Assembly: GCA_021432655.1 (NCBI GenBank) | Contig: MU271204.1 | Location: 111,019-166,347 of the forward strand | DNA: 55,329 nucleotides | Direction: 5' to 3' | Origin: Atractiella rhizophila | Lineage: Eukaryota | Part shown: positions 3,339 to 22,936 of the stretch, piece after piece | Layout: each line of letters begins with the position of its first letter | How positions within the stretch are numbered: the stretch's first letter is position 1 | Translations under genes and position numbers: made by a program | The notes under the pieces: generated by a model | Databases searched by the model: none | Told to the model about the DNA's origin: nothing | What the model saw: the letters and a program-made list of their open reading frames with translations, nothing else

Positions 3339-5076
3339 TTGGTTTCCCTCAGCTCCTTCGGATGCCTCCTCGCCCCTCCGGGGCGGCGAATTGAGGAGAA
3401 AAGACATTTTACTGATGACTCACCCCTCTACTTCTTTCCCTACACCAACCTCACAGCCACCCGCTTCTCAATAACCCTTCCTTCTTTACCGCGCAACCCC
3501 AACCCTAACGCAGCCACCTACCCCAGCGGAATTCGAGCTAACATACCCCAATCTATTCACAACCACAAAGGAGAACGTCAGGACGACGTGTCAGGTTGGC
3601 GGAACAAGAAGGGTTTGCTGAACTTCTCCAATGAATGGGAGGGGGTCACAGAAGACTCTCCCGAGTTGATCGCAGCTCGCCAGAAGTGGATGGCGAAGGA
3701 GTATAGGCAGTTCGGGATCGAAGCCTTTGGAAGGCGGAAGAAGACTGGTTGTAGCGTTCCTCCATCCTCTGTTCCCATCATCATCGACTGTTCGAAGCCT
3801 CTGCTCAAGAGTCTGCATACCCAACACATGGCTCTGAGTCCCATCGCCTTTCTAACAACGTCAGTGAAGATGGAAGTTGGGAGGAAGATGGTGGTCGCCC
3901 GTGATGGTCTTCTTAGCTATGCGACGAAGGAAGGTATAGGCTGACCTTCCAAGTTGTCCATCTCAAACTTATCCGGAACGGTGACTAGGTCCCGTTCGAG
4001 TGATCGATCCTGAGTTGAGGGCTAGCATGCCGCTCAACTCCCATTCGTTGCCGATCATTGACATGGCAGTCTCGATGATGGAAGGTCGAAGTCTGTTGAG
4101 TGGAGGATTGAGAGCAGATAGTTTGGCTACGTGCGCGGCGGACGGGAAGTTGATCCTGTGGAAAGTACCTAGCAACTTACGTTTTGGCACTGGCCCCACT
4201 GAGTTTGTCATCCCAATACTCTCCTTCGTTTTCGCCCTGATATGATCCTCCCTCAGGTACAGCATATCCACCGAGATTCACAGCGGCAATATGGGCACGC
4301 TCGCTGGGCTACAATGGCATCCCACCAAACCAGACATCCTTGCCGTTAGGACTACCAAAGGAGCTTTAGCCATTTTGGACTTCGAGAAGGACGTTAGCGG
4401 GAAGATTCTTAACGGGAGAGGCCCAGTGATGTGGGAGGAGGCAATTAAAGGGCAAAGACAAGTAGTCCTCCCTACAGTACGCTAAATGTCCTTACCACAT
4501 TGAGACCAATCTGACCGTAATGTAGATGGCTCGTTTGATGACGTTCTCTCCGGATGGATCTCTCCTCGCTGTCTACACAGAGAACGGCTACCTCTCAATA
4601 CGTGATTCTGAGGATCCTGGTTGAGTAGCGTTCCAATCGGAGCACACTCTGGCAGCTCCCGCATCCAGTGTCACTGGTATCGAATTCCTCAATGCTCCCG
4701 GTTGCCACCTGAGATATATCTCCATCAGTAGAAACAATGGTACCAAAGTAGAGGTTTTCGAGCTCCCTAACCTTCTCCAGTCCGTTCTGCAAGTCAACTT
4801 TACTGCTTCTCAGGTTGCTGGCACATCCCTTCCGCCTCTGGACGTGGCCATTCTCTCTTTTGCCATACATCCTTCCGCTCGAACGTCTCCACGCTCTTCA
4901 TCTCTAACTCACTTCGGGCTAGTTTCTTCGCCTTCCATGTTCAATTCCCGAAATCATCAGAAATTAAGAAGGAATCTAACCGAACAGATGCAGACTTTAT
5001 CAAGCAGATTGTACAGCGAAGACCTGAAGCCAGCACTCTCAATCGTGGTATTCTTCTCACCACTTTCGTCGACTAC
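3339..5076 (+). pseudogene. WD40 beta-propeller resembling the N-terminal domain of fungal Edc4/Pdc1 (mRNA decapping scaffold), with lesions
   Basis: Spliced reading gives IIIDCSKP...LLSYATKEG/PVRVID...IIDMAV...LATCAADGKLILWKVP...LQWHPTKPDILAV...FSPDGSLLAVYTENGYLSIRD...SRNNGT...TLFISNSLRASFFAFHV. Short GT-AG introns lie near 3935-3988, 4203-4256 and 4478-4525. There is an in-frame TGA at 4622-4624 and a frameshift near 4880. The WD40 call is from the motifs; the Edc4 resemblance is from memory of the family. Confidence 0.55.
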
Positions 5077-6768
5077 ATGATCGAGATTCCCACTGAGGAG
5101 ACAGTCATCAGCTTCGCGTTGAACGAGGTGCCTAAGAGAGATAGCATCATTTTATTCTTCAGTCCACAAGGGATAAACCAGCTGTCCATCGACCAACAAT
5201 CCTTGGTTGGTCCTCCAGAGTTTCCATCTCGACCTACCCAAATATGTCCAATTAGCTACCTCCCGCCCGAACTACTGTACCAGTTATTTTACCTTTTCTC
5301 ACCTCGTGTCTCTCACATCAAGGATTTGAATCACGAGTTCATCAAACATTTTTGCATCTTTATACAGATTTGTTGGACGTTCCGCAACATTGGACTCTCT
5401 GCTCTACAAAAATACGTCACTCATTTTGAGGACCAGTTTTCCTCACATGCTATCAACATCAGATACCTCAGGAACATGGCTATGGAACATGAGTCTCCTT
5501 GGCGAGCTGGGGCAAGGTTCAGTCTGGGTCTTCCAGTTCCATCCCTCGTGTCTTGGCCCGAATTACTGCAAGCTGTTAGAGTAACTCGAAATTCGAATGT
5601 GCACCTCTACAATCTTCCATGGAACAACTTTAACCAGGTTGATATGTTGAGGTCAATTTTTAAATACCGGCCAGCATCTTTGACACTCTCCTTTAATAAA
5701 CAACAAGCTGAATTATCTCTGCAACAGATACTTTATGTCCAGGAACACCACATTAGCCATGTCACCATAACCAAGCTGGTTCCTTCACAGGGAGCCCGTT
5801 TCCGCAACGATCTACCCAAGACCTTCGGAAGACTTGCTTTACTTCGATGTCGCCTTTCTGATCAAGACATCTATTGGTCGCCAAGCCAGCAGTCAATTGA
5901 GACATTGATGTTCAGCTCCTTTCATCACTTGCTTACTGCCGATGGCTTTTGTCGCTTTTTAAGGAAAATTACGACACGTAACCTCTGCTGCTCTTTTCAG
6001 GAGCTTTCGGACAGTGATGTGAATGTATCTCGCCTAGGAAGACATATCGACCATGAACTGCTCGATGCGGTAGTTGGGAAGCGTGGTGACGACGGTCGTA
6101 GGACACTTTACATTGATGGAGGAAAGGAGGACTCAAATCTTATTTCTGATCAATTTCTGACAGTCGATGCTCCATGGCAGTATCTATCAGAACTAGTTTT
6201 ACTTTATTGTCATTTTCCGGCCAGCACAGTCTGCAAGTTCCTCCTCTCCATCACTCAAAATTGCCTGTTGAATTTTGCTCATCAACCTTTGGTCATGCAG
6301 CTGAAGCCATTCGTTGGAGATTGTGACATTTCAGATTCCTGGTTCTCTGAAATTGGGGAATGGCAAACATCACAAGGACTGTCTGTGGTAAAATTGTTCA
6401 ACGAAAGGTTGGGGCAAGGTTATCGATATCAGCTGCAGTATGATCCCTTGAGGCCAGGGACAGTTTTCTATGTTTTCTATAAGGGAGATTTCGGCTCCAT
6501 TGACCTGTGGATCATTGATCAGGATGATGTGCCTGGGAATGAAGACTCTCTCTTCTTTTGGCAGAGTTTCAATGCAAACAAGTTAGTGGGTAATTGTGCT
6601 ATTGATAAGTGCACGATGAAGAAGGGGGAAGCATCGACTCCAAGCTCGAAGTATTTGCGGGAACTTAAGGTGATGGAAGAGTCTGGCGAGTTGATTGTGG
6701 CTCGCCAGAAGGAGATGGCAAAGGAGTCTTCAGGCAGGGGTGTGCCAGGGCTATCGTGTCGGAACTGA
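5077..6768 (+). CDS. 563-aa intronless protein with an F-box-like motif
   Basis: Longest ORF in the window. ISYLPPELLYQLFYLF...FCIFIQICWTFRNIG fits the F-box consensus LP.ELL..IF...L..VC..W and is followed by Leu-rich, possibly LRR-like segments. The frame stays open upstream to at least 4861. Confidence 0.6.
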   Translation: MIEIPTEETVISFALNEVPKRDSIILFFSPQGINQLSIDQQSLVGPPEFPSRPTQICPISYLPPELLYQLFYLFSPRVSHIKDLNHEFIKHFCIFIQICWTFRNIGLSALQKYVTHFEDQFSSHAINIRYLRNMAMEHESPWRAGARFSLGLPVPSLVSWPELLQAVRVTRNSNVHLYNLPWNNFNQVDMLRSIFKYRPASLTLSFNKQQAELSLQQILYVQEHHISHVTITKLVPSQGARFRNDLPKTFGRLALLRCRLSDQDIYWSPSQQSIETLMFSSFHHLLTADGFCRFLRKITTRNLCCSFQELSDSDVNVSRLGRHIDHELLDAVVGKRGDDGRRTLYIDGGKEDSNLISDQFLTVDAPWQYLSELVLLYCHFPASTVCKFLLSITQNCLLNFAHQPLVMQLKPFVGDCDISDSWFSEIGEWQTSQGLSVVKLFNERLGQGYRYQLQYDPLRPGTVFYVFYKGDFGSIDLWIIDQDDVPGNEDSLFFWQSFNANKLVGNCAIDKCTMKKGEASTPSSKYLRELKVMEESGELIVARQKEMAKESSGRGVPGLSCRN

Positions 6769-17500: not shown

Positions 17501-19424
17501 CAAGGGCGGCAAGAAAAAAAAAACAGGAAAAAAAAGTGGGGGAGTGAAAGGGGGATTACAACTTTTCCAATAGCTCCAATACAGGGCTCAGGACCGTTCC
17601 AATTGGCGCAGCCTTTTGGTTGGGATTCGAGTGGTTTTGACGGAAGCATGGCAGTTTCGGAAAGTAGAATGCGTTGTTCCTATTTGGCGTAACCAAATTT
17701 TATGAATCGCTTTAAATCACTTTCCGACTGGCTGTAGCTACGCGTTTGACAAAGCAATTGAAAAGCTAAACAAGTATCACATTCCCTCTCGTTCCTGTAA
17801 GGTCTACATCATTGCTACGGGTACGCACATGCCCCTATCTCTACTTTCATGGAAATAACATACTGTTAGTGTGTCATCCGCTCCATCGTGCTGCTTTCTT
17901 CCATAAGTACGGGTCGGATGTAAAGCGGCGAGCGGTCGACGTTTTCCACCAGAACAAGCATGAAATCATGTCCCAGGATTCAAAACAAGTCTCTTATGGA
18001 TGACTGGACCCATTGGCATCAAGGAATGCGACAGCGACCACGTGGCCTTTCCTCCAATCATGCTAATGACACTCCACCACCATCAAAAGAGCACCGATGG
18101 TCCTTCTAACTGCTCGACGTCCAAAGTGGCATGCTGGTAGAAGTTAGTGTCTCTCCACGAAGAAGGAAGGCTCCGCTGTTAGAAACACATTCACATGGTC
18201 CACTTTCTGCAGAGACCAGTCAATATAAAAATAAGATATAAAGCAACATCCCCTAACTCTCCTTTCACAATCTTGGAGACGGCTTCATAAATTGTCCAAA
18301 CATCTTCTGAGACTTTCGTATTCGACATCTTGACATCCGGCTTGGGCATCTTGAAGATAACTCTTAGGTCGTAATCCTTGACCATCAAGAAAGAATGTTT
18401 CCTTCTTGCACAAAGCAGTGCAACCCAAAAGCGAAGACGTTTGGAAAAATAGGAAAGACTGGAAGGCCATCCTTTGGCATATGCATCCCATAATAATAAT
18501 ATGAGGAAGGATGGATGGGTAATTCTTCAGAGGCTTCTTCTTCCTCTTCTGAATATCCTTGACGGCATCAAAAACGACCACCATCGCCAAAAAACCTATC
18601 GTATAGTTTAAAAAACACTCTTCACTACATATAACTCCTCCACCTCCCACACCTCCTCCACAATTCCGCCTGTAGACCCCTCACCCCACCGACATCCTCA
18701 ATGACTCCTCCTCCAGGCTCTCGGAAGGGCAGGGATGAGCCAGCATCACTCACCCCTGTGAGGGAAGGTGAAGTAGAATCAACTTCAACTTGGGATGCCC
18801 TAGCCAGGCTCCCTGAGTATGCCAGCAATGCTCGCATCGAGCCTACCACCCTGAAAGCCAACAGATTTTTCAAAGAATATCTCCCAAATCCCACCGACCA
18901 AAACGACCCCATCAAAGTCCTACAGCTACTCTGCGACTTCTTGGACGACAACTGCAGGCTTAAAAGGACACACCTTAATGATGTTCAAGAGTACCCATTT
19001 TGATTCTGGTATCTCACATGAGCACAATGCTAAACGTGACAAGCCGAGAGAGAGATTTGCCCCAATTATCGGAGTTGGAAGGATTACTCAGTCAAGAAGG
19101 GGGTTGTAACCCTGAAAGGCCAAATTGCTGATCCCAAAGACGCCGTGGCATCCCACTCTCATGCAGTGAACCCGGCCTCACTAGGAGTGAGAACGGCGGA
19201 AAGCATGGCTTCTCATTTGAGAATGATACATAACGGAACCAACGCTAAGCACCTTTCCTCCATCCTTCCACTCTCCCATTCTATTTCCCACCCAAACCTT
19301 TCCCCCCCTCCCGCTCACAATACCACTAACGAGGCACTCCAGCTCACCCTCACATGGAAGGCTCCAGAACATTCAGAAGCTTCCTCCCCTCTCGACAAGC
19401 TGCTCGAAGAGGGCACTGTACCTG

Positions 19425-19531
19425 TGTTGGAAATCTACGGGCTGAGGAGCGGAGCTAAGTATGACTTGGTTACGTTTGGCTGAGCTCTTGCAAACGCATG
19501 AGCACCAGGAAATGGAATTCTATATGTTTAT
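19425..19531 (-). mobile_element. Inverted 3' half of the copia LTR family below
   Basis: Reverse complement of 19631-19737 with 3 mismatches in 107 nt. Confidence 0.9.
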
Positions 19532-21119
19532 TGTTGGATTTTGCAGTCTAGTTTCGTGCCACTCAGTGGCAAAGTTTTTTAGGTTTCTGGAATGTTCTAC
19601 TATTTTCTAGTTGCCCCTGCTGTAAGATATATAAACACATAGAATTCCATTTCCTGGTGCTCATGCGTTTGCAAGAGCTCAGCCAAACGTAACCAAGTCG
19701 TACTTAGCTCCGCTCCTCAGCCCGTCGATTTCCAACACAAACGCATCCGGTTAGACCACCGTCACCAGTCCAGAAGAGCGGATCTGTACGACCCACGCGC
19801 CAGCCATGTCGACCCACACTGTTGGAATTCATTCATTCATTCGCGAAATTCCAAAGCTCGATGGAACAAACTATGCAGACTGGAAATTTGCTGTCACCCT
19901 CGTCCTGAAGAAATGCAATTGCTGGGATATCCTTACAAGCACGACAGATGGTGTCCAGACAAGGACTGCATCAGATGAAACGAAGAGACAGCTTGAAGAC
20001 TCACTTACAATAATTGGACTCAGCCTCGATCTGTCGCAGTTCATGTATGTTCGAAGCAGCACTACTGGTCCAGAAGCATGGAAAGCCCTGAAGGAGAAGT
20101 ATGAGAAATCCTCAAAAGCGAACAGAATCACCTTGAAACGCGCATTTTACACGACAAAGCATGATTTCAGCGCCCCCATTGAACAATTCATCTCCCACGT
20201 CCTTGAATCAGCATCAAAAATGAAATCAATCGGCCTAACCCTGTCAGACCAAGATATTACGGATGTCCTGACATTCAACCTTGCAGAAACATGGGGAAGC
20301 CTTGCCAGCACGCTCATGGCCACGACAGGGGAGCAGACAATTGATGAAGTCGTTTCAGCACTCAGGGATGAAGAGAAGAGAAGAGGTGGAATACCAGGAG
20401 AGATAGAGATAGCTGCAATGGCTAGAGCAGCGCCTAAATGGGAAAGGAAGGAACAACAGAGGGAGAATAGTCGAAGATTTGAACGATATTCAGAATCCCA
20501 GAATAACGGTACCTCGCAGCCTGTTGGATATGTGGTAATCCCACTCACATTGCTCGAGATTGTGACAGAAAAGCAAAGCCACAGGAGAGTACACACCTAG
20601 CTATTAATGAAGCTTTGATCGATGCAGCTTTTTAGAAGAAGGAAGAAGATTGAGAGTAGGAATAGTTGAATGGTCTTAAGATCCGGTGAAATTTGGCGAA
20701 TGGTGGCCGTGTATCATCTTCAGGCTTAGGAAGAAGATCTTTCATCGTTGGTGAAGCATCATGGGACAGCTATGACCTCGTATTGATGTGCCTTGAAGCG
20801 GCAGAAGCAAGAAATCGGCGGAGTTTTGAGGAGTATTAAAGTTTGAGATCCCCTTGTTGAGAACTGAATTGATCCTTGTTTACCTTTTAATGACCTTATC
20901 GATTAACTTTACTTTCTATTGATTACCTCGTGGCACTCCACAAGCCTGGGCGGAAGTGTTGGATTTTGCAGTCTAGTTTCGTGCCACTCAGTGGCAAAGT
21001 TCTTTAGTTTTCTGGAATGTTCTACTATTTTCTAGTTGCCACTGCTGTAAGATATATAAACATATAGAATTCCATTTCCTGGTGCTCATGCGTTTGCAAG
21101 AGCTCAGCCAAACGTAACC
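19532..21119 (+). mobile_element. Non-autonomous gag-only Ty1/copia-type LTR retrotransposon
   Basis: 5' LTR 19532-19737 (TGTTGGA...TCCAACA, TATA at 19628). 3' LTR 20957-21119 is truncated and shows 4 mismatches over 163 nt. A purine-rich gggcggaag precedes the 3' LTR. The 1.2-kb interior holds gag only, with no pol. Confidence 0.9.
19806..20635 (+). CDS. Copia-type Gag (UBN2/Retrotran_gag_2-like) with a frameshifted CCHC knuckle
   Basis: IPKLDGTNYADWKF.V..VL....CWDI, AWKALKEKYEKSS.ANRITLKR.FY, L.NL...W. The knuckle CWICGNPTHIARDC at 20522-20563 lies in another frame and ends at TAG 20633-20635. Confidence 0.85.
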
Positions 21120-21925
21120 TTTCGGCAATCCCTCTTCCAATGACCTTCGATGCCACTTTTATGGCATTTGCCCTTTTTCTTCTCGCTCTTCGACCTCCCT
21201 CCACCGCTACTTCCACCTCCCGACGTGGTATAGTTCCTTCCTACTCCCCTAGACCTCGTAACTAACGCTTCGCTAGGTTTTGAGTCTGGATTCCTTCGAT
21301 CGGCTTCGAGCAGGAGACGGCAAGCGACGTAGGAGGACGTGAAATCAGAGGAGAAGACGGCGTTGAACGAGGAGACGACTTCGATCCAGGACGGCAGTAG
21401 GGAGATCAACAGTAGCATCGCGACATCCTCATCATCCGTCTTGTCACCCATCGCCTTCAACTCTTGCCCCATGGTGCGAATCCGATTGACATGATCTCGC
21501 ATCAACTCACCCTCGACGTAACGCGCGGTGTAGAGCTTCTGACGGAGGAGAACACGAGCCTGGCGGTCCTGGGTTTGGTAGAGCTCCTTGAGCCTATCCC
21601 AAACCTCCTTCGGCTTCTCGACGTCGATATCCAGGATATCGGTGACTACCTGGTCTTTGCAGGCTTCGATAATGATCGAATAGGCTAGGTTCACCCGTCT
21701 CGTCCAGTCCTTCTGCGACGCCTTGACCTTTGCGACTTCCTCCGGCTTCCCAGCCTCTCCACCAACGGCAACGGGTTTGACATCCGTCCCAGCAATGATC
21801 CCCCAGCAATTCTTGCCGAGCAGCTTCGCCTGGACATGGAAGTACCAGATGTGGTAGTTCTCCCATCCCTCGAGTTTTGGGATAGTCGAAGAAGTAAGTA
21901 TGGTGGTGTCATGATTTTCAGACAT
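21104..21925 (-). CDS. Second, different copia Gag, truncated right after its zinc knuckle
   Basis: IPKLEGWENYHIWYFHVQAKL....CWGII, VWDRLKELYQ, MRDHVNRI..MGQELKAMG....DED.AMLLLISL..SW, and knuckle CHKSGIEGHWKRDC (second Cys changed to Ser). The last codons are read from the other element's 3' LTR. Confidence 0.88.
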   Translation of the reverse strand: MSENHDTTILTSSTIPKLEGWENYHIWYFHVQAKLLGKNCWGIIAGTDVKPVAVGGEAGKPEEVAKVKASQKDWTRRVNLAYSIIIEACKDQVVTDILDIDVEKPKEVWDRLKELYQTQDRQARVLLRQKLYTARYVEGELMRDHVNRIRTMGQELKAMGDKTDDEDVAMLLLISLLPSWIEVVSSFNAVFSSDFTSSYVACRLLLEADRRNPDSKPSEALVTRSRGVGRNYTTSGGGSSGGGRSKSEKKKGKCHKSGIEGHWKRDCRKVTFG

Positions 21926-21970
21926 TTCAGGCTGACTAGGTGGCAGGGAATTCGGCTAGATGAGAACGAT

Positions 21971-21982
21971 CTCTCGCTACCA
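21971..21982 (-). promoter_or_regulatory. tRNA primer-binding site of the second copia element
   Basis: TGGTAGCGAGAG on the minus strand, 2 nt after an LTR-like end ...TTTATCA (21985) and 46 nt before the gag ATG. A TGG start is complementary to tRNA CCA, and TGGTAGCG resembles the Ty1 initiator-Met PBS. Confidence 0.75.
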
Positions 21983-22757
21983 ATTGATAAAGATTACGAG
22001 CGGTGGGGCGAGCGGGACTGCAAGGTGTGAGACCAATCAAAACTCTGGGTCTCACACTTGCAGGGGAAGTTATTTTATAGCATAAAAGCTGAGTAATAAG
22101 AAAAAGGAACCAAGAAAATATGACTTCATACCAGCAAGAGAAAGGAGGGTGCGTTTATGCTCCCGTGGCCCCATCAGAGAATACTGAGATACAAAAAGAA
22201 AAAGTGTGAGAAGGCCCGAACTAATATGGCTCAAGCAGGAGTAGGCTAAATCCCTACCCTGTTCAAGCCAACATAGAAGGAGAATAGTGTTGTTGGAGAT
22301 GGGGAACCTGGGAAGGATATTAAAACTCAAAGTACCAGTGATGGATTTTGGCAAGCTGGAATAGTGACTTCAAGAGCTTGAGCGCACTAATGGCGCAAAG
22401 AAAGCCGAAGTGGACTAGGTGCATCTGAATACTCGCTACTGCATCAAGTAACATGAGGTGTAGTCATATCCCTCATCTCAACCGTCAGCCGCCTGGATCA
22501 CCTCCTCATGCTCCATACGCAACAGCCCCATCTGGATTCTATCTCCTGCCGTGTCGAAGCCAAAGCCCTTGTCTCCCATTTAGAACGCCCGCATGAATCC
22601 CGCAAACCTGGCAGATACACACCCAACAACATCGCTGTGCCGTCTGTCAGGAATAACAGACTATCTTCTGGAGATGACTGGAGAGGGCCTATCCCAGGCA
22701 GCCCACATACGCGAACGGAGCAACACTCAACACTCCTCCCGGCACCTTGGCAAAGAT

Positions 22758-22936
22758 TGTTGTTTTTGTCTGCTACTTTGTTAACCTCAAACAAATGTAC
22801 TACATTTGGCTGAGCTCTTGCAAACACATGAGCAGCAGCAACACAAGAGGTGTTTATATACATGAGAGCTGGGGCAAATAGAAACTTCCAGAATGTTCAT
22901 AAAGAACGTATTACTAACATTTATACATCTCCAACA
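22758..22936 (-). mobile_element. Solo LTR (179 bp) with 5-bp TSD
   Basis: TGTTG...CAACA ends with AAGAT duplicated at 22753-22757 and 22937-22941. Has a TATA box and an R-region block shared with the 19532 LTR. Confidence 0.88.

Follow-up and report, generated by a model that had tools for sequence, protein, structure and literature searches.

The window analyzed here, a stretch of 55,329 nucleotides (nt) of Atractiella rhizophila contig MU271204.1, carries a short retrotransposon whose long terminal repeats (LTRs) enclose a copia-type gag gene and no other open reading frame (ORF). Directly behind its 5' LTR lies CAAACGCAT, the exact reverse complement of ATGCGTTTG in the same LTR; the match extends over 9 bp, is mismatched on both flanks, and its upstream partner starts 35 nt past the start of the TATA box (Table 1). 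An earlier note, made from the letters of the window alone, had pointed to this pair and its distance from the TATA box as a candidate for self-primed reverse transcription, and rereading the sequence bears out both observations. Direct reading also upholds its statement that neither a TGG... nor a GGTTATG site follows position 19737, a judgement by motif in which the host tRNA set was not compared. No tRNA genes were found within the window, and an Rfam search of 19400-22400 at a permissive threshold gave only sub-threshold chance matches, with no credible RNA family at the site. The best of these matches, MIR841, reached 41.9 bits where the gathering score is 200 and was rejected; it is caused by the inverted pair of LTRs.

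Table 1. Features of the gag-only element and its neighbors in the window, and paired segments in related elements (positions refer to the window).
Feature	Position	Strand	Details
Inverted partial LTR copy	19423-19531	-	abuts 5' LTR; 97% complementary to 19631-19739; outside the element's mechanism
5' LTR of gag-only element	19532-19737	+	206 nt, TGTTGG...CCAACA; 98% direct repeat with 20957-21119
TATA box TATATAAA	19628-19635	+	read in the sequence
Putative self-primer ATGCGTTTG	19663-19671	+	predicted first 9 nt of the transcript (start of R); C/A at -1/+1
Local partner of the 5' segment, CAAACGTA	19684-19691	+	in the window's minimum free energy (MFE) and centroid folds
U5 (unique 5' region) strand of second helix	19697-19715	+	GTCGTAC 19697-19703, TCCGCTC 19709-19715; complementary to 19776-19792
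Predicted primer binding site CAAACGCAT, self-complementary type	19738-19746	+	directly after 5' LTR
Internal part of element	19738-20956	+	
Leader strand of second helix, U5-IR-like	19776-19792	+	GAGCGGA 19776-19782, GTACGAC 19786-19792
gag ORF	19806-20600	+	264 aa as found; PF14223 E 1.1e-24; sole ORF of element
Polypurine tract GGGCGGAAG	20948-20956	+	adjoins 3' LTR; GGGGGAG at the equivalent place in relatives
3' LTR	20957-21119	+	ends early, after LTR position 163
Second copia-type gag	21925-21104	-	273 aa, PF14223 E 6.3e-26
LTR segment/post-LTR site, L001			ATCGGTTTGT/ACAAACCGAT; 0/2000 shuffles
LTR segment/post-LTR site, L002			ATCGAGTTGT/ACAACTCGAT; 0/2000 shuffles
LTR segment/post-LTR site, L003			ATCGGTTAT/ATAACCGAT; 4/2000 shuffles
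LTR segment/post-LTR site, L007			GCGGGATTGT/ACAATCCCGC; 0/2000 shuffles
LTR segment/post-LTR site, L008 (L009 identical here)			6 nt exact; 8/9 pairs if G-U counted; 608/2000 shuffles
Second helix, window			TCCGCTC/GAGCGGA and GTCGTAC/GTACGAC
Second helix, L001 and L002			GTACCA/TGGTAC
Second helix, L003			TTGTACCA/TGGTACAA
Second helix, L007			TAAGAGTT/AACTCTTA
Second helix, L008			AAGAGCT/AGCTCTT; two-sided compensatory change versus L007

The window was compared with four public runs (X1, X2, X4, and X6), all of them Logan contigs whose RNA status is guessed. Right behind 19737, contigs diverge into many differing flanks (10 in X1, 3 in X4, and 3 in X6), so that the LTR end has independent support; a few contigs diverge at 19738 or 19739 instead. 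The junction between LTR end and site is unchanged in X2 record 10, X4 record 18, and X6 record 26, and contigs of these three runs that bridge it do not differ from the window; among the matches listed, no variant falls within 19628-19835. Both partners are therefore conserved in close copies, which carry no covariation signal at this place. A tRNA site in other copies, the outcome that the earlier note had set against its own proposal, is not what these runs show: their close copies keep the self-complementary site.

Taken alone, such a pair could be a chance complement or a scar of the inverted LTR fragment that abuts the 5' LTR. It measures only 9 nt; a complement of at least 9 nt to the first post-LTR bases arose in 13 of 2000 dinucleotide-preserving shuffles of the LTR, which makes the window pair suggestive and, by itself, not decisive; and the inverted piece carries caaacgcat (19491-19499) 240 nt upstream. 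Yet this origin is already contradicted by the identical junction in contigs of three other runs and by five diverged relatives, from other samples and with other sequences, that show an equal architecture without the inverted neighbor, and we give it next to no weight.

These relatives come from a scan with the gag alignment, which recovered 17 related loci in JGI metagenome contigs and none in viral_contigs or genome_contigs. Five further distinct elements among them (L001, L002, L003, L007, and L008) have neither TGG nor the half-tRNA site described below behind their LTRs. Their sites differ, and each complements the element's own LTR (Table 1), the kind of compensatory change for which the earlier note had proposed a family alignment. 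With the window element included, all six elements have the paired site at the first base after U5 or in overlap with the final base of the LTR. In each of the six, the distance from the start of the TATA box to the start of the LTR segment is 33-35 nt (33-34 in the five relatives). The step at -1/+1 of the segment is CA in four elements, TA in one, and CG in one, and thus resembles a transcription start, although this is a hint only.

Across 9 positions in six elements, 51 of the 54 cells are Watson-Crick pairs, 2 are G-U pairs, and 1 is unpaired, with two-sided changes at 8 of the 9 positions of this first helix (helix 1). When the 3' partner was slid by 1-3 nt in either direction, 9-19 Watson-Crick cells were left; when the sites were re-dealt among the elements, none of 265 derangements reached 51, the maximum being 37. 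MAFFT alignments split the 9-mers because U5 lengths differ; hence, pairs were counted by a script that took the LTR end as the anchor of the registers, with no covariance model. For each element, the register was the one that gave the best complement where the LTR ends, a choice that the sliding and re-dealing controls cover in part. We are confident that a pairing between LTR segment and site has been selected for some function.

Eight other loci (L004, L005, L006, L010, L011, L013, L015, and L017) have a site of a different kind: GGTTATGGGCCC stands immediately behind ...CAACA. The classical half-tRNA site of copia is one for the anticodon arm of initiator tRNA-Met (tRNA-iMet). GGTTATGGGCCC is complementary to that arm and is contained in antisense iMet oligonucleotides given in the excerpted texts of PMC1797187 and PMC5648532. 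Four of the seven half-tRNA-type loci tested have no LTR complement of at least 5 nt to the post-LTR bases; two others have a 5-nt complement, which 307 and 369 of 1000 shuffles also attained; and L017 has an 8-nt local hairpin adjoining the site. The site type was scored with L012 (region missing), L014, and L016 left out. In several half-tRNA-type loci, e.g., L006, L010, and L013, the LTRs begin with TGTTGGAA. In L017, a distant relative of the half-tRNA type, CTCATAACC matches the anticodon loop region of iMet exactly; it stands 8 nt upstream of GGTTATGGGCCC (L017:622-650) and is able to pair with it. Judging from the sequence, L017 carries a mimic of its own primer beside the site.

The use of tRNA halves by copia-type elements, and of an iMet anticodon-arm site by relatives of the present element, raises the question of whether an internal piece of a host tRNA, or some other small host RNA, anneals to the self-complementary site, with the LTR match being secondary. 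FunCo1 elements have been reported to rely on an internal tRNA-Lys region (excerpted text of PMC5445492). A single fragment cannot explain six different sites, each matched by its own LTR; one host RNA per family would be needed, together with coincident LTR matches, which makes a host RNA primer very unlikely, and the Rfam search brought up nothing tRNA-like at the site. The match to a host tRNA fragment that the earlier note had considered is thus an unlikely explanation for the family.

In a FastTree reconstruction from gag sequences, the self-type elements form one clade, with a local support of 0.945, nested among the half-tRNA-type elements. The tree holds 23 gag rows, namely, 10 from the loci and the window, the protein relatives P0001-P0012, and the window's second gag as a single distant outgroup on which it was rooted; L008, L013, L014, L015, and L017, whose ORFs are short or broken, were left out, as were P0013-P0017. 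It supersedes an IQ-TREE run on 15 locus-derived gag rows, broken ORFs included, which was unresolved (1 of 12 inner branches starred). The simplest reading of these sequences would be one switch within the gag-only lineage, in which a self-complementary site took the place of a half-tRNA-iMet site. Drosophila copia, Ty5, and Osser are primed by half-tRNA-iMet (excerpted text of PMC6317226), and the sister loci with GGTTATGGGCCC behind ...CAACA resemble them; the window clade, unlike that type, has lost GGTTATGGGCCC and carries its self-complementary site at the equivalent position. The earlier proposal of tRNA-independent priming in a gag-only copia lineage is supported for a subclade; other members of the wider lineage use a half-tRNA-iMet site.

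A second helix accompanies the first. In all six self-type elements, U5 pairs with sequence just past the site, over 6-8 bp or over two stretches of 7 bp (Table 1). For the window, both the MFE and the centroid fold contain this helix, as does the MFE fold of L003, and helix 1 appears in the MFE folds of L001, L002, and L007. The window also offers a local hairpin (19664-19691) between the 5' 9-mer and CAAACGTA; in a second LTR family, described below, C-to-T changes affect both of its strands, which then pair through G-U only. On the folding model, this hairpin may compete with the primer-site duplex.

From sequence comparison, we favor, at a probability of roughly 0.7, the reading that reverse transcription in this non-autonomous copia-type lineage, from Agaricomycetes, is self-primed in the manner of Tf1. 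Transcription would start at 19663 or close to it, about 35 nt past the TATA box of the LTR, as TATA spacing and the pyrimidine-purine step suggest. The first 9 nt of the RNA, AUGCGUUUG, would then fold back on CAAACGCAU directly 3' of U5 (19738-19746), with 9-10 nt annealing, while the helix between U5 (19697-19715) and leader (19776-19792) would keep the site in a loop. The gag-only elements lack an RNase H, so the primer would be cut in trans: an RNase H from elsewhere, presumably that of a helper element, would cleave behind the duplexed 5' nucleotides, and the freed 3'-OH would be extended through U5 and R. The site would be regenerated from the primer in every cycle. Since it would be recopied each time, primer and site could drift and yet stay complementary, which would explain the tight covariation.

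Several observations weigh against this model. Helix 1 of L008 holds one mismatch and two G-U pairs, and the second helix is weak for each element alone, being reached by 36-585 of 1000 shuffles. The MFE fold of the window pairs the 5' 9-mer with the nearer CAAACGTA rather than with the site, and the folds are no more stable than those of shuffled sequences (z of -1.7 to +0.6). The elements encode neither reverse transcriptase (RT) nor RNase H, and no fused gag-pol protein was found among the longer relatives at an E value of 1e-5 or better, although that absence is weak evidence. Contig starts at 19669, 19675, and 19678 were observed in runs whose RNA nature is a guess; they lie 6-15 nt past the predicted start, and on one of them an Illumina adapter tail directly precedes 19678. 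If the real start were at 19678, the 9-mer would lie outside the RNA 5' end and the model would be contradicted; these contig ends, a weak hint only, may represent RNA ends just inside the start, cut RNAs, or branch points of the assembly.

The same contig ends would fit a 5' segment that lies away from the RNA 5' end, as expected if the helix were a conserved RNA structure serving packaging, dimerization, translation control, or strand transfer while another molecule primes. Covariation proves a selected pairing and not its use as a primer, and pairings of this reach are known from other LTR elements: the cyclization sequences of Ty1 pair over a long range and are not a primer. We nevertheless consider such a structure an unlikely explanation. 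The site lies, in each of the six elements, precisely where a primer must anneal; it replaces, at the equivalent position, the half-tRNA-iMet site of the sister loci; and no alternative primer site is visible beside the LTR. Self-priming remains the reading that we prefer, and it is compared below with known systems.

Tf1-type gypsy elements are, to our knowledge, the only ones for which self-priming has been demonstrated, and elsewhere it is predicted from single sequences. In Tf1, a U5-IR-like (U5 inverted repeat) structure is reportedly required, a finding attributed to Lin and Levin in 1998, and the self-primer is reportedly not removed (Atwood-Moore et al. 2006). Tf1 has 11 nt at its RNA 5' end that are complementary to a site behind U5 (excerpted text of PMC7175516). 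The present clade resembles Tf1 and Tf2 of Schizosaccharomyces pombe and the Tf1/sushi group, including the basidiomycete Tcn1-like elements, in having no tRNA site. Like Tf1, it has a short stretch at the predicted RNA 5' end (9-10 nt here) that complements a site directly behind U5, and a helix between U5 and leader that flanks the site. Unlike Tf1, a member of the Ty3/gypsy chromoviruses, it has a copia-type gag (PF14223), LTR ends of the form TGTTGG...CAACA, and, in relatives, 5-bp target duplications; it lacks an RT and RNase H of its own, and its self-priming is predicted.

By its other features, the element belongs with Ty1/copia: its gag is of copia type with a CCHC zinc knuckle, for which relatives carry PF00098, and its LTRs are short, of the TG...CA form, with 5-bp target duplications read in L008 and L013. 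The gypsy-type gag-pol with chromodomain integrase (INT) that marks Tf1/sushi elements is absent, gag being PF14223 and pol missing altogether.

Self-priming in copia elements is not unprecedented, given that the plant Ty1/copia TAR lineage is predicted to prime itself, as had earlier been suggested for Houba and Osr-1 (excerpted text of PMC6317226). The present elements share with this lineage the copia superfamily and the prediction that a self-primer substitutes for a tRNA site; by the descriptions in that excerpt, the TAR elements differ in being autonomous plant elements placed by trees of RT, RNase H, and INT, whereas the present lineage is fungal and gag-only. Its position beside half-tRNA-iMet relatives suggests an origin separate from that of TAR. 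We lean, if only slightly, toward the view that self-priming arose independently in a gag-only copia lineage of Agaricomycetes, where it replaced half-tRNA-iMet priming, with both states surviving in sister families. Among fungi, the GalEa copia elements of Pezizomycotina likewise have no tRNA site; the excerpted text of PMC5445492 describes a Conserved Hairpin Site, no primer binding site, and no complement to the RNA 5' end that could be found. According to the same excerpt, the GalEa site is palindromic (CTGATCAGT or CTAATTAGT) with a local hairpin, whereas the present site is non-palindromic and its partner in the LTR lies about 60-75 nt upstream. The open-access literature searched yielded no report of self-priming in fungal copia elements, or of the present gag-only family, and reports may exist outside it.

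If the model is right, there should be either an unseen autonomous copia partner that primes itself or a helper whose enzyme tolerates a kind of primer foreign to it. The family set offers a covarying primer and site; its closest relatives still use a tRNA half, which would make the switch of primer type datable and open to dissection; and dependence on the enzyme of another element would make the specificity of primer cleavage testable in trans. For annotation, this abundant gag-only family of Agaricomycetes, with elements of about 1.4 kb, will be overlooked or wrongly classified by LTR-finding pipelines in which a tRNA-complementary site is obligatory.

The window copy itself is broken. Near 20517, its gag is one base shorter than the copies that each of the four public runs holds, and the frame shifts there; PF14223 and DUF4219 are matched in the ORF as found, and the CCHC zinc knuckle CWICGNPTHIARDC and the family C-terminus lie only in the other frame (20519-20635). 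With this frameshift and the shortened 3' LTR, the copy is dead. A contig that joins 20956 straight to 19532 was found in each of the four runs; the short gag-only layout is therefore the normal form of the family and not a local deletion. In X2 and X6, one contig each omits 702 nt of gag (19818-20521), with 8 nt common at the joint; such a contig derives from the element by deletion or by template switching.

At an E value of 1e-5 or better, the window gag has 17 protein relatives of 175-321 aa and 39-49% identity, and the three that are named (Ephemerocybe, Agrocybe, and Trametes) are all Agaricomycetes. A C-terminus a few residues past the zinc knuckle is common to most of these relatives. 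Those elements for which both LTRs are present (L008/L009, L013, and L015) measure 1.4-2.2 kb, with LTRs of 133-247 nt; overall, the gag-only elements span 1.1-2.2 kb and encode gag alone. Target duplications of 5 bp, GATTT at L008 and CTTTT at L013, were read, and the related elements are mobile gag-only elements. Agaricomycetes seem to carry copia-type elements of this gag-only kind widely (P0001-P0017 and L001-L016), with ORFs that are intact and about 250-280 aa long. The L008/L009 element lies within arrays of an approximately 87-nt tandem repeat, in both orientations on its two sides (L008:1-1972 and 4214-5292; L009:3993-4873). Copia makes a subgenomic gag RNA; by analogy, and speculatively, the gag-only elements may stem from the reverse-transcribed spliced gag mRNA of a copia element.

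Downstream of the element lies a second, minus-strand copia-type gag, and the earlier note was correct in assigning a primer binding site at 21971-21982 to this neighbor: TGGTAGCGAGAG, the reverse complement of these positions, stands upstream of its PF14223 domain. This gag is joined to the shortened 3' LTR of the first element at 21119/21120, both being cut off exactly there; its ORF continues into that LTR, and its zinc knuckle has S for the second C. A second LTR family, at approximately 22758-22936 on the minus strand, is 77% identical to the first LTR over 88 nt. The two families have in common a near-identical 39-nt block, 19654-19692, which runs from the 9-mer region to ...gccaaaYgta and has differing flanks. 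The second-family LTR (approximately 22936-22758, minus strand) contains ATGTGTTTG; CAAACACAT was not found behind it, and the window holds no second copy of this LTR region, so that the second family is uninformative for covariation. It has several copies, however, since contigs of X1, X2, and X4 switch to it at 19654 and 19692.

The inverted partial LTR copy abuts the 5' LTR head to head and contains the caaacgcat mentioned above. Within it, 19468-19531 is 100% identical to 21056-21119 and 97% identical to the 5' LTR, a pattern that hints at rearrangement or gene conversion between the copies.

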